Positions 7,458 through 9,578 of a DNA stretch of 14,413 bases are shown here, in pieces. The notes under the pieces were generated by a model. That model had not been told where the DNA came from. It searched no databases and saw only the letters and a program-made list of their open reading frames with translations. Source of the stretch: a virus (lineage: Duplodnaviria; Heunggongvirae; Uroviricota; Caudoviricetes); IMG/VR virus record IMGVR_UViG_2663762810_000008; one strand, written 5' to 3'. The stretch's first letter is position 1. Each line of letters opens with the position of its first letter. The translations under genes and the position numbers were made by a program.

Positions 7458-7673
7458 ATGAAATCAATGGATAAGTTAACAACAGGTATCGCCTATGGCA
7501 CATCGGCTGGTAATGCTGGTTTCTGGGCATTGCAGTTACTCGATAAAGTAACTCCGTCACAGTGGGCTGCAATCGGTGTGCTGGGTAGTCTGGTTTTTGG
7601 CCTGCTGACGTATCTGACAAACCTTTATTTCAAGATTAAAGAAGACAGGCGTAAGGTTGCGAGAAGAGAGTAA
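7458..7673 (+). CDS. essQ: Phage 21 S-type pinholin (class II holin) with dual-start motif
   Basis: 71-aa translation [71 protein letters not shown] matches the remembered S21 pinholin; two hydrophobic segments; Met1-Lys-Ser-Met4 gives antiholin/holin dual starts; GAGGAT ribosome-binding site. Confidence 0.9.
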
Positions 7674-7677
7674 TCCA

Positions 7678-8229
7678 ATGACACAAGACTATGAACTGGT
7701 TGTGAAAGGAGTCCGCAATTTTGAGAATAAAGTGGCGGTAACTGTAGCCTTACGGGACAAAAAACGCTTTGACGGTGAAATTTTTGACCTGGACATCTCG
7801 CTGGACCGTGTTGAAGGTGCCGCGCTGGAGTTTTATGAGGCAGCAGCCAGAATGAGAATCAGACAGGTATTCCTGGATGTTGCTGCCGGGTTATGTGTAG
7901 GGGATGAGCAGTCGCCGGAAAAGCGCCCCATAATTTTAGAGGCGCAGAATGTGTGGATAACCTACAAAGGAAAGCTACCGGGAAGAATTACTGGTTCTCT
8001 GAAGACGCCACCGACGGCATTGCGGTCAGAAAAAGATGATATTGAATCGCCCATTGAAAAACTGGAGGGCAGCGTCGCTGATCTGAATAAAAAATTGTCG
8101 GTGCTGATCCCTTCTGAAGATGAAAAAAAACGCCGCGATGAGCAGTTTGCGGCGTTTTACGATTATTGCATTGAAGTTACTCGCAGGAATTTTGTGAAGA
8201 TTTTTGAGGAGGGTAAATCTCTTCAGTAA
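7678..8229 (+). CDS. Hypothetical protein between holin and endolysin (possibly YdfR/DUF1327-like, C-terminally extended)
   Basis: ATG at 7678, 4 nt after the holin stop (MTQDYELVVKGVRNFENKV...). The track start at 7657 overlaps the holin and is less likely. Resemblance to the small ydfR-type ORF of Qin-like lysis cassettes is from memory and not verified. Confidence 0.55.
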   Translation: MTQDYELVVKGVRNFENKVAVTVALRDKKRFDGEIFDLDISLDRVEGAALEFYEAAARMRIRQVFLDVAAGLCVGDEQSPEKRPIILEAQNVWITYKGKLPGRITGSLKTPPTALRSEKDDIESPIEKLEGSVADLNKKLSVLIPSEDEKKRRDEQFAAFYDYCIEVTRRNFVKIFEEGKSLQ

Positions 8230-8437
8230 GCTTAATGGCGGACGCTGCAATTAATTCAGGAAGGTCCGCAAGGTCATCTGTCAGTGGATATGATGAAAAA
8301 TCGGCGGCAGTTCTGTTAAGAAGCGCTTTAACTAATTCCTTTTCCTTCTCCGGCAACAAGTTGATTAGAGCTACGACTGCTTGCCTGAGTGCGATTAAAT
8401 CAGCAAAAGTTTGTTTTGGTAGATTTGTGTAATCCAT
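8177..8437 (-). CDS. Hypothetical protein, 86 aa, convergent with and overlapping the 3' end of the preceding ORF
   Basis: ORF MDYTNLPKQTFADLIALRQAVVALINLLPEKEKELVKALL... with a protein-like helical composition; fills an otherwise ~320-bp gap ahead of the endolysin. Start ATG at 8437 (track lists the GTG at 8443). No family recognised. Confidence 0.3.
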   Translation of the reverse strand: MDYTNLPKQTFADLIALRQAVVALINLLPEKEKELVKALLNRTAADFSSYPLTDDLADLPELIAASAIKLTEEIYPPQKSSQNSCE

Positions 8438-8550
8438 AGTCACCTCTGTGTTTATCAGATTGACATCCTCCTCCCGCCAGTGCCCATCACTGGTGAGGTA
8501 AGATTTAACATATCCGGGGATTTGAAGCCGATAAATCCTGATAAATATCC

Positions 8551-9084
8551 ATGAACGTAAAAATCAGATACAGCCTGTCGGCTGCTGTTCTGGCACTGAT
8601 TGCCGCCAGTGCTCCTGCCCCTGACATTCTCGATCAGTTTCTGGATGAAAAAGAGGGGAATCACACCACTGCATACCGCGATGGCTCCGGCATATGGACC
8701 ATCTGTCGGGGAGCAACGATGGTGGACGGTAAACCTGTTATTCCGGGAATGAAACTGTCGAAGGAAAAATGCGCCCAGGTTAACGCCATTGAGCGGGATA
8801 AGGCGCTGGCATGGGTGGAGCGCAATATAAAAGTTCCACTGACCGAGCCACAGAAAGCCGGTATCGCGTCATTCTGTCCCTATAACATTGGCCCTGGTAA
8901 GTGTTTTCCGTCGACGTTTTATAAGCGGCTTAATGCCGGTGATCGTAAAGGCGCATGCGAGGCGATTCGCTGGTGGATAAAGGACGGTGGACGTGATTGC
9001 CGCATTCGTTCAAATAATTGTTACGGTCAGGTTATTCGTCGTGACCAGGAGAGTGCATTAACCTGCTGGGGGATAGAACATTGA
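8551..9084 (+). CDS. rrrQ: SAR endolysin, T4-lysozyme-like (GH24)
   Basis: 177-aa ORF with N-terminal weakly hydrophobic Ala-rich segment ([15 protein letters not shown]) typical of signal-arrest-release domains, and the catalytic triad spacing E-x8-D-x5-T ([16 protein letters not shown]). Confidence 0.85.
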
Positions 9085-9578
9085 ATCAGATATTCACGGT
9101 GATTTTGCTCGTGTTGGTAGGATTTGTCGTAGGTAATGTCTGGAGCGACAGAGGATGGCAAAAAAAATGGGCGGAGCGTGATGCTGCCGAATTATCTCAA
9201 GAGGTAAATGTCCAATTTGCTGCTCGAATAATTGAACAGGGGCGAACTATATCCCGTGATGAGGCTGTTAAAGATGCACAACAGAAAGCCGCTGAAATTT
9301 CTGCCAGGGCTGCTGATCTGTCTGATAGTGTTAACCAGCTGCGTGCCGAAGCAACAAAATATGCCATACGCCTTGACGCAGCGCAGCATACCGCAAATCT
9401 TGCCGCTGCCGTCAGAGGCAAAACAACCAAAGCCGCCGAAGGAATGCTCACCAACATGCTCGGAGATATTGCAGCAGAAGCTCAGCTTTATGCTGAAATT
9501 GCTGACAAACGCTACATCGCAGGAGTGACTTGTCAACGGATTTATGAATCTTTAAGAGATAAAAAATATCAGATGTAG
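9081..9578 (+). CDS. rzpQ: Rz-type inner-membrane spanin
   Basis: N-terminal transmembrane segment ([15 protein letters not shown]) followed by a charged, Ala/Gln-rich coiled-coil-like periplasmic domain. Start overlaps the endolysin stop; the codon at 9081 is TTG, so the exact start is uncertain (alternative GTG at 9099). Confidence 0.8.
9274..9528 (+). CDS. rzoQ: Rz1-type outer-membrane lipoprotein spanin, embedded in the +1 frame of the Rz gene
   Basis: [23 protein letters not shown]: positively charged n-region, hydrophobic core and LTSC lipobox, then a Pro-rich mature region ([14 protein letters not shown]). GAGG site 9 nt upstream of the ATG at 9274; an alternative ATG lies at 9259. 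Confidence 0.6.

Follow-up and report, generated by a model that had tools for sequence, protein, structure and literature searches.

INTRODUCTION

The lysis cassette of phage 21 comprises a pinholin, a signal-arrest-release (SAR)-type lysozyme of glycoside hydrolase family 24 (GH24) with the residues E35, D44 and T50, and an embedded two-component spanin, and its S, R and Rz genes are contiguous, without inserted genes. In phage 933W, S and R are adjacent, the ant gene lies between R and Rz, and Rz/Rz1 are of the lambda/21 type. The Qin prophage of Escherichia coli K-12 has the order essQ-ydfR-rrrQ-rzpQ/rzoQ (b1556-b1553, b4689) and retains an intact gene for the late activator Q (ydfT). Here, we describe the lysis genes at positions 7458-9578 of a 14,413-nucleotide stretch of Caudoviricetes DNA (IMG/VR record IMGVR_UViG_2663762810_000008; 'the window' hereafter means this whole stretch), in which the genes of K-12 Qin recur in the same order and Q, unlike that of K-12, is truncated.

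For lysis of this kind, exit of the first transmembrane domain (TMD1) of the holin from the bilayer, heptameric pinholes, and refolding of the phage 21 endolysin R21 are established knowledge, with secondary descriptions in the literature (PMC7312051, PMC9239132, PMC6139136). Lambdoid phages that carry a cassette of the same architecture as the window and form plaques are also available for comparison. One of them, 2H10 (LR595862), is a temperate coliphage that is spontaneously released by natural isolates and was plaque-purified on indicator strains (Mathieu et al. 2020, PMC6969025).

RESULTS

The lysis genes are full length and match those of plaque-forming phages

The window contains a holin gene, essQ (S), an endolysin gene, rrrQ (R), an inner-membrane spanin (i-spanin) gene, rzpQ (Rz), and, embedded in the latter, an outer-membrane spanin (o-spanin) gene, rzoQ (Rz1; Table 1). 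All four lysis genes are full length, belong to the families listed in Table 1, and keep their defining residues and motifs, as in viable phages. An initial annotation, made from the sequence alone, had listed the lysis elements between 7458 and 9578, and every feature it listed is present there. We regard the region with high confidence as a structurally intact late lysis cassette of a Qin-like lambdoid E. coli prophage, with the order essQ, ydfR-like gene, open reading frame (ORF) on the reverse strand, rrrQ, rzpQ/rzoQ.

The evidence that bears most directly on function comes from two plaque-forming lambdoid phages, 2H10 (NC_049950) and PhiR63_1 (PV340573), to which the region is 99.4% identical at the nucleotide level over 2401 bp. 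Their architecture is identical to that of the window, including the gene for a 183-residue YdfR-like protein and the reverse ORF; in its arrangement, the cassette shows no departure from copies in viable phages. The holin (71/71) and Rz1 (84/84) are the same in all three, the endolysin agrees at 176 of 177 positions (Q177H), and Rz agrees at 164/165 or 163/165, with the start codon differing from both phages and V20I differing additionally from PhiR63_1. Because the proteins are identical or nearly so to those of these two phages, the cassette is very probably functional. Both phages have an intact Q upstream, a GTG start codon for Rz, and Gln177 in R, whereas in the window Q is truncated, Rz starts with TTG, and residue 177 of R is His.

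The comparison with K-12 Qin extends to the flanks, which are the same in both, with cspF, cspB, and ynfU upstream and cspI, ynfQ, ynfN, and gnsB downstream. Identity to the K-12 proteins is 68/71 for the holin, 164/177 for the lysozyme, 148/165 for Rz, and 80/84 for Rz1. A difference in structure is a 658-bp segment (7883-8541) that stands in place of 93 bp in K-12, and as a result the window encodes a YdfR protein of 183 rather than 103 residues and has the added 86-residue reverse ORF. The same replacement uncouples rrrQ from ydfR in the window, while the two genes are coupled in K-12.

Table 1. Lysis genes, intervening genes, and putative regulatory elements of the window
Feature	Position	Strand	Description
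Holin gene essQ (S)	7458-7673	+	71 aa, MKSMDK start; PF04971; phrog_9876 and phrog_20 'holin'
YdfR-family gene	7678-8229	+	183 aa; PF07041 at 141 bits; phrog_2091 match 1-183/183
86-aa acidic ORF	8177-8437	-	phrog_2572 match 1-86/86, E 1e-53; RefSeq WP_001306174.1
Endolysin gene rrrQ (R)	8551-9084	+	177 aa; PF00959; GH24 T4-lysozyme-like muramidase
i-spanin gene rzpQ (Rz)	9081-9578	+	165 aa; PF10721/DUF2514; phrog_312 'Rz-like spanin'
o-spanin gene rzoQ (Rz1)	9274-9528	+ (+1 frame, inside Rz)	84 aa; phrog_11621 'Rz-like spanin'
Q remnant (ydfT/quuQ type)	5306-5561	+	last ~85 of 250 codons; first ~166 codons (5' two-thirds) deleted
pR'-like late promoter	5593-5621	+	TTGCAT-17-TAAAAT, directly 3' of Q stop; by pattern and position only
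tR'-like intrinsic terminator	5667-5690		G+C-rich hairpin and T-run, ~40-60 nt past the putative late start
Intrinsic terminator 3' of cspB	6987-7006	+	8 pairs, 5 of them G-C, then TTTATTAT; precedes essQ
Sigma-70 promoter-like element	7306-7333	+	TTAATA-16-AATAAT, ~125 nt 5' of essQ (promoter scan)

The holin is assigned to the phage 21 S family

The EssQ sequence scores 116 bits (cut-off 26) against the profile PF04971, 'Bacteriophage P21 holin S', and is identical to S21 (OL657228) at 58 of 71 positions (82%). These matches place EssQ in the phage 21 S family, that is, among the class II holins or pinholins. Specifically, the segment comprising residues 7-28 (TMD1) is rich in Gly, Ala, Ser, and Thr, contains no charged residue, and includes N19 and Q26, while the second transmembrane domain (TMD2; residues 36-54/58) presents a G40xxxS44xxxG48 face and is followed by a charged C-terminal tail. 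Relative to S21, TMD2 carries only two conservative swaps, and residues G40, S44, G48, T51, T54, and N55 are unchanged.

The Met-Lys-Ser-Met dual-start motif that the initial annotation attributed to this gene is present. The MKSMDK motif spans 7458-7475, with Met1 encoded at 7458 and Met4 at 7467; it is the same as the motif of the annotated S21-71/S21-68 dual start, and it begins each of the full-length holins adjoining close relatives of the window spanin (72/72). By analogy with S21, the 71-residue product starting from Met1 is presumed to be the antiholin form, and the 68-residue product starting from Met4 is presumed to be the pinholin. The S protein of 933W is more distant (54/71 identical to EssQ); it starts with MYQMEK and has no Lys2.

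The endolysin carries an intact catalytic triad and a predicted SAR N-terminus

In alignments with Protein Data Bank (PDB) entries, the RrrQ triad E35-x8-D44-x5-T50 is in register with E35, D44, and T50 of R21 (3HDE, 3HDF) and of RrrD from DLP12 (4ZPU). Across 58 aligned family members, drawn from Escherichia, Citrobacter, Klebsiella, Salmonella, Yokenella, Hafnia, and others, neither the triad nor any of eight cysteines varies, and the window protein has them all. The AlphaFold2 model of RrrQ (predicted local distance difference test score, pLDDT, 81.9) adopts the GH24 fold, with matches to full-length R21, RrrD, P1 Lyz, and T4 lysozyme. The initial annotation had proposed a search for inactivating changes in the triad or the holin transmembrane segments; in the alignments the triad is intact, and TMD2 of the holin shows only the two conservative swaps described above.

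The N-terminus of RrrQ, which had also been described initially as SAR-like, contains K4 and R6 followed by a run of 18 uncharged residues (7-24), 56% of which are Gly, Ala, Ser, or Thr. This composition is the one given for SAR domains in PMC9239132, namely two or three basic residues and a charge-free, weakly hydrophobic stretch rich in Gly, Ala, Ser, and Thr. It is shared by the 58 family members, in which the uncharged run comprises 16-21 residues and two or three basic residues are present in 56; no member has a cysteine in its first 30 residues, and L9, S10, L16, and A23 are invariant. We infer that RrrQ is an SAR-type endolysin, for which membrane tethering and release are predicted by analogy with characterised relatives. 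The closest of these is R of 933W, with 159/177 identical residues (90%) and a very similar N-terminus. Identity to R21 is only 56/187 (30%), and the N-terminal 30 residues do not align. On these alignments, RrrQ falls into the Qin/933W endolysin subfamily and is not a close relative of R21.

The same N-terminal segment could be read as a cleavable Sec signal peptide, in which case RrrQ would be a conventionally secreted lysozyme, the holin would do no more than time lysis or depolarise the membrane, and leaky expression of R would be directly toxic. The hydrophobic core of the segment is short (~13 residues), as is typical of signal-peptide h-regions, and it is followed by small residues in which two A-x-A-like sites, AAS-A and ASA-P, resemble sites for signal peptidase. 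However, the best of these, ASA, is followed by Pro in the window protein and in many relatives, and a Pro at +1, which signal peptidase I does not tolerate, argues against cleavage at that site. The N-terminus is also unlike a disposable signal peptide because four invariant positions amount to more conservation than such a peptide needs. Furthermore, 933W R was cloned and used as an SAR endolysin by the Young laboratory (PMC9239132). In that work, members of a panel of SAR endolysins that included 933W R, when expressed alone, caused few cells to round up, and co-expression of the Mu releasin raised the fraction (PMC9239132). A genomic survey classed Stx-phage endolysins of the same type as predicted SAR enzymes paired with pinholins (PMC8136144). 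We therefore consider secretion with a cleaved signal peptide improbable, and retain the SAR assignment.

The spanin is of the DUF2514/N15 gp55 type and embeds a conserved o-spanin

By hydropathy, RzpQ has a strongly hydrophobic N-terminal TMD at about residues 4-21, followed by a periplasmic helical domain with Cys151. The Rz1 lipoprotein that the initial annotation placed in the +1 frame of Rz is found there as rzoQ. Its product has a signal peptide, a lipobox LTSC (Cys23) with Val at +2, and a mature lipoprotein of 62 residues that contains nine prolines as well as Cys58 and Cys62. Both subunits have periplasmic cysteines of the kind expected for intermolecular disulfides. The lipobox fits the consensus [LVI][ASTVI][GAS]C without Asp at +2, and the position of rzoQ, 0.39L-0.90L of Rz, is inside the range reported for embedded spanins (PMC6139136).

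Among 80 close IMG/VR relatives, no broken Rz or Rz1 was found. The Rz proteins of the IMG/VR relatives are all 99-100% identical, and diverged homologues were therefore drawn from a phage collection. The resulting DUF2514 set, with Rz identities from 92% down to ~32%, comprises Tritos, N15, Fraca, C130_2, a Klebsiella prophage, Skarpretter, Sortsne, Lumpael, Pararheinheimera phage KLER1-1, and Salmonella phage SW-37, plus rzpQ of K-12 Qin (90%). In SW-37 the embedded lipoprotein is not readable, and its Rz homologue appears fragmented. With the window included, ten spanin genes have a readable embedded ORF. A +1 ORF with a start codon, the lipobox cysteine, and a shared core is present in the nine others, down to ~32% identity, which answers the proposal in the initial annotation that conservation of the Rz1 lipobox be checked. 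By annotated ATG starts, the embedded ORF begins at ~0.39-0.54 and ends at 0.87-0.90 of Rz length; by first in-frame start codons, it begins at 0.35-0.54. It is annotated as an o-spanin in KLER1-1 and as rzoQ in K-12. Two or three extra cysteines are retained in all relatives examined. Because the lipobox and core motif are conserved in nine other DUF2514 spanin genes, rzoQ is not a chance ORF.

RzpQ is 59% identical to N15 gp55, and N15 also embeds a +1 o-spanin of 84 residues with the shared core; the N15 spanin differs in that it pairs with a different holin, of 101 residues. In the part of a spanin survey covered here, N15 is listed as an embedded two-component spanin with an 84-residue o-spanin and represents the family, and the exact Rz/Rz1 sequence of the window is not among the entries listed in that part (PMC6139136). 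RzpQ gave no match to PF03245, the lambda/21 Rz family. Identity to the phage 21 proteins, which belong to Phage_lysis and not to DUF2514, is 38/177 for Rz and 17/84 for Rz1 (~21%). The spanin is thus assigned, by family and alignment, to the DUF2514/N15-gp55 type and not to the lambda/21 Rz type. The label 'S21-type', which the initial annotation gave to the module as a whole, fits the holin and has to be withdrawn for the endolysin and the spanin.

A single G-to-T change at 9081 accounts for both Q177H in R and the replacement of the Rz start codon GTG by TTG. The TTG overlaps the R stop codon (ATTGA). Of 80 close IMG/VR relatives, 78 start Rz with GTG and 2 with TTG. The cassette might accordingly look intact and yet be impaired, if the change at 9081, together with the lost ydfR-rrrQ coupling, lowered the output of spanin or endolysin, so that expression led to membrane damage or spheroplasting and not to full lysis. 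The rarity of TTG among relatives, the presence of GTG and Gln177 in both viable reference phages, and the lack of a visible Shine-Dalgarno sequence upstream of R all speak for such impairment. Against it, at least 13 complete E. coli genomes with 100% identity across the cassette share the TTG allele; one is that of strain A3, whose prophage looks complete from Q to the head genes. TTG is, moreover, a legitimate E. coli start codon, the ATTGA overlap still permits coupling to R, and the viable phages 2H10 and PhiR63_1 use the same uncoupled arrangement of R. In addition, spanin defects are often masked in shaken laboratory culture (PMC6139136). We judge an impaired cassette to be unlikely; the change at 9081 is possibly a hypomorph rather than a knock-out, in a cassette that we still read as intact.

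Two further genes separate the holin from the endolysin

The initial annotation described the lysis module as complete. As regards the genes, which are intact, this description stands; as regards contiguity it does not, since S and R are separated by ~880 bp containing two genes, one of the YdfR family and the 86-residue ORF on the reverse strand. This long spacer (~877 nt) is the commonest arrangement, found in 40 of the 73 IMG/VR relatives whose S and R could both be located; the K-12 arrangement is found in 26.

The YdfR-like protein consists of a conserved DUF1327 N-terminal domain of ~112 residues and a C-terminal extension of 70 residues, as delimited in the family alignment. The family is restricted to Escherichia and Shigella and falls into length classes of 103, 114-116, 171-183, 211, and 296 residues with swapped C-termini. 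The NCBI annotation pipeline PGAP calls the window gene a truncated pseudogene, although its phrog_2091 match is end to end. PADLOC and NCBIfam gave no match to the YdfR-like protein, and a PDB sequence search returned nothing or noise. For the K-12 protein, residues 1-72 bind the catalytic N-terminal half of RNase E, and YdfR co-purifies with RNA (2026, PMC13232886).

The reverse ORF shares 53 nt with the 3' end of the ydfR-like gene and has a GAGG Shine-Dalgarno sequence 5 nt ahead of its ATG. In this region the minus frame alone is open. The ORF is confined to eight E. coli lambdoid phage records, representing six distinct phages, and lies between the DUF1327 gene and the endolysin gene in every copy with annotation that was examined. 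Searches of Pfam, PADLOC, NCBIfam, and the PDB gave no match. One phage record bears the name DUF1823 for this ORF; the corresponding Pfam hit, at an E value of 0.11 in a search extended to E 10, is noise. The comparison with the copy in PhiR12_1, which has three synonymous and eight non-synonymous codon changes, is uninformative on purifying selection.

The cassette lies in a Qin-like prophage crippled by deletions

The genes and matches of the 14.4-kb window identify it as a defective Qin-like lambdoid prophage of E. coli. By BLAST, positions 5306-14171 are 99.9-100% identical to prophage DNA of many complete E. coli genomes. Within this region, at least 15 complete E. coli genomes carry annotated essQ/YdfR-family/hypothetical/rrrQ/rzpQ blocks with 100% identity to 7300-9700, and 101 records match this interval at 99% identity or above. 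In the identical block of strain A3, the RefSeq gene order is ydfT (Q), cspF, cspB, ynfU, essQ, the YdfR-family protein (flagged partial), a hypothetical protein on the reverse strand, rrrQ, and rzpQ, followed by cspI, ynfQ, ynfN, gnsB, DUF1441, and the large terminase; the A3 prophage looks complete from Q through the head genes. The integrase end of the window, its first 1.6 kb (integrase gene, 386-1609), matches a prophage of strain Z142-6 that is integrated beside yjjG.

That the prophage is crippled, as the initial annotation held, is seen in two deletion junctions. The first, at 5306, joins a 5'-truncated yfdQ-like gene to Q at codon ~167; the yfdQ match ends at 5310 and the Q match begins at 5306, leaving a 5-nt overlap. 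The second, at 14171/14174, fuses the large terminase gene directly to the 3' part of lom, and because of this fusion the head and tail genes between them are missing. In 5,426 complete E. coli genomes, a 300-bp query across the yfdQ/Q junction was nowhere matched contiguously, and a 36-mer of the junction found nothing among GTDB species representatives. Because the junction is absent from all 5,426 genomes, the yfdQ/Q deletion is private or rare. Since the deletion is private and the flanks still match intact prophages almost perfectly, the intact state of the lysis genes is put down to recency and does not count as evidence of selection.

Two genes elsewhere in the prophage were noted. An ORF of 239 residues just 3' of the integrase (1895-2614, +) has an end-to-end match to phrog_8440 (E 1e-144) and no match in Pfam, PADLOC, or NCBIfam; it lies at the attachment-site end and is possibly a cargo or moron gene. 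The gene gnsB (10829-11002, +; GnsA/GnsB family), which RefSeq labels 'addiction module toxin', sits 3' of the lysis genes with ynfN and ynfQ, as in K-12 Qin.

Loss of Q leaves two candidate routes to expression

The Q match to intact prophages begins at nucleotide 497 of the 753-nt ydfT gene, and the remnant covers positions 11-87 of the 87-position profile PF03589, 'Antitermination protein Q'. The initial annotation had called Q missing. The late activator is indeed non-functional, but it is not absent, as its last ~85 codons remain. Directly downstream are a pR'-like promoter and a tR'-like terminator (Table 1). The terminator hairpin has a stem of 10 pairs; the scan reports it on the minus strand, and the plus strand reads AAAACCCGCTGATGAGCGGGTTTTTGTGCTTT. 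In phage 21 (OL657228), pR', a Q-binding element, and a terminator are annotated directly after Q, at the same relative positions as the patterns in the window. With the first ~166 codons of Q lost to the private deletion, transcription that begins at the pR'-like promoter should therefore end at the terminator next to it. We infer that the cassette is silent in this prophage in vivo, and that Q supplied in trans by a co-resident prophage of the same Q type could activate it.

The initial annotation had Q missing to drive the cassette; to say that nothing drives it would be too strong, since the sigma-70 promoter of K-12 essQ is conserved. In K-12, genomic SELEX identified a constitutive RpoD promoter of the essQ operon, TTTATA-16-AATAAT, in the essQ-cspB spacer, which is marked HNS (Shimada et al. 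2014, PMC3946193). Alignment identifies the element at 7306-7333 as this promoter with one substitution, and it may provide the other remaining route to expression. The spacer that holds the element is AT-rich and separates essQ from the divergent gene ynfU (7069-7290, -; PF23499 zinc-ribbon). As to conditions of expression in K-12, RNA-seq under standard growth gave almost no ydfR reads (PMC13232886), the cluster is up-regulated in the cold according to database evidence cited by the same authors (PMC13232886), and essQ is among the genes up-regulated under several stresses (PMC9501238).

The lysis cassette has cold-shock genes on either side, namely cspB, cspI, cspF (5977-6189, -), and ynfQ. 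The leaders of cspB and cspI have full-length matches to the cspA thermoregulator (RF01766), at 6329-6768 and 9795-10200 on the plus strand, with 156 and 117 bits.

This setting raises the possibility that the host has kept the cassette and expresses it without Q, from the essQ promoter or by cold-shock read-through from cspB, as a stress-triggered module for autolysis or envelope remodelling. The conserved promoter in an HNS-marked spacer, the thermoregulator leaders on either side, and the cold and stress responses of the K-12 genes are in keeping with such a use. The deletion of Q, however, is private, and the block is 99.9-100% identical to intact prophages, so that recency explains its intactness and selection is not needed. 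A strong terminator also stands between cspB and essQ, and nothing points to expression at a lytic level. Host use of the cassette is therefore doubtful, and recent loss of Q from an otherwise ordinary lysis region is the reading we prefer.

DISCUSSION

Following the paradigm of phages 21, P1, and 933W, we propose that essQ would yield two products, of which the longer, with its extra Lys2, would act as a weak antiholin that delays triggering, while the shorter, starting from Met4, would be the pinholin. The pinholin would accumulate in the inner membrane until its weakly hydrophobic TMD1 exits the bilayer at a defined moment, whereupon TMD2 would oligomerise into small pinholes that let no folded endolysin through, and the membrane potential would collapse. 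RrrQ, exported earlier by Sec, would be held inactive at the membrane by its uncleaved, weakly hydrophobic N-terminal SAR segment, and depolarisation would free and activate it in the periplasm, where it would degrade murein. A complex of RzpQ in the inner membrane and RzoQ, the outer-membrane lipoprotein, would then disrupt the outer membrane.

Several points weigh against the view that the region is an intact, working cassette of this kind. The case for pinholes and for SAR behaviour is extrapolated from S21 and 933W R, at 82% and 90% identity, respectively. The N-terminus of RrrQ has the short core and the signal-peptidase-like sites described above. The rrrQ gene lacks both a canonical Shine-Dalgarno sequence and the translational coupling to ydfR that K-12 rrrQ has, and the TTG start of Rz may lower the yield of i-spanin. 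Finally, the promoter and terminator calls are pattern matches that are not enriched over shuffled sequence (7 promoter-like sites versus 11.1 expected).

The cassette is of the standard Qin/Stx-phage lysis type, with annotated copies in K-12 and thousands of E. coli genomes and with component types described in the literature. Its Q-independent, stress-controlled use by the host is the one reading with some novelty, which the recency of the deletion makes unnecessary. In a broader form, Q-less remnants might be host-controlled modules for autolysis or envelope stress that are switched on by cold shock or by relief from H-NS, with the YdfR-like protein and the reverse ORF as built-in modulators; we mention this as speculation with very little likelihood of being correct. 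The cassette is of little consequence outside annotation. In the RefSeq version of this block, the embedded o-spanin is missing, and the full-length, 183-residue YdfR-family gene is flagged as a pseudogene.

The YdfR-like gene and the reverse ORF sit within a lysis cassette that works in viable phages, and they are inexpensive targets for studies of lysis timing. For the bacterium, an intact set of predicted pinholin, SAR endolysin, and spanin beside a functional-looking late promoter in a defective prophage amounts to a latent lethal locus, which could be set off by a compatible Q from a co-resident lambdoid prophage.

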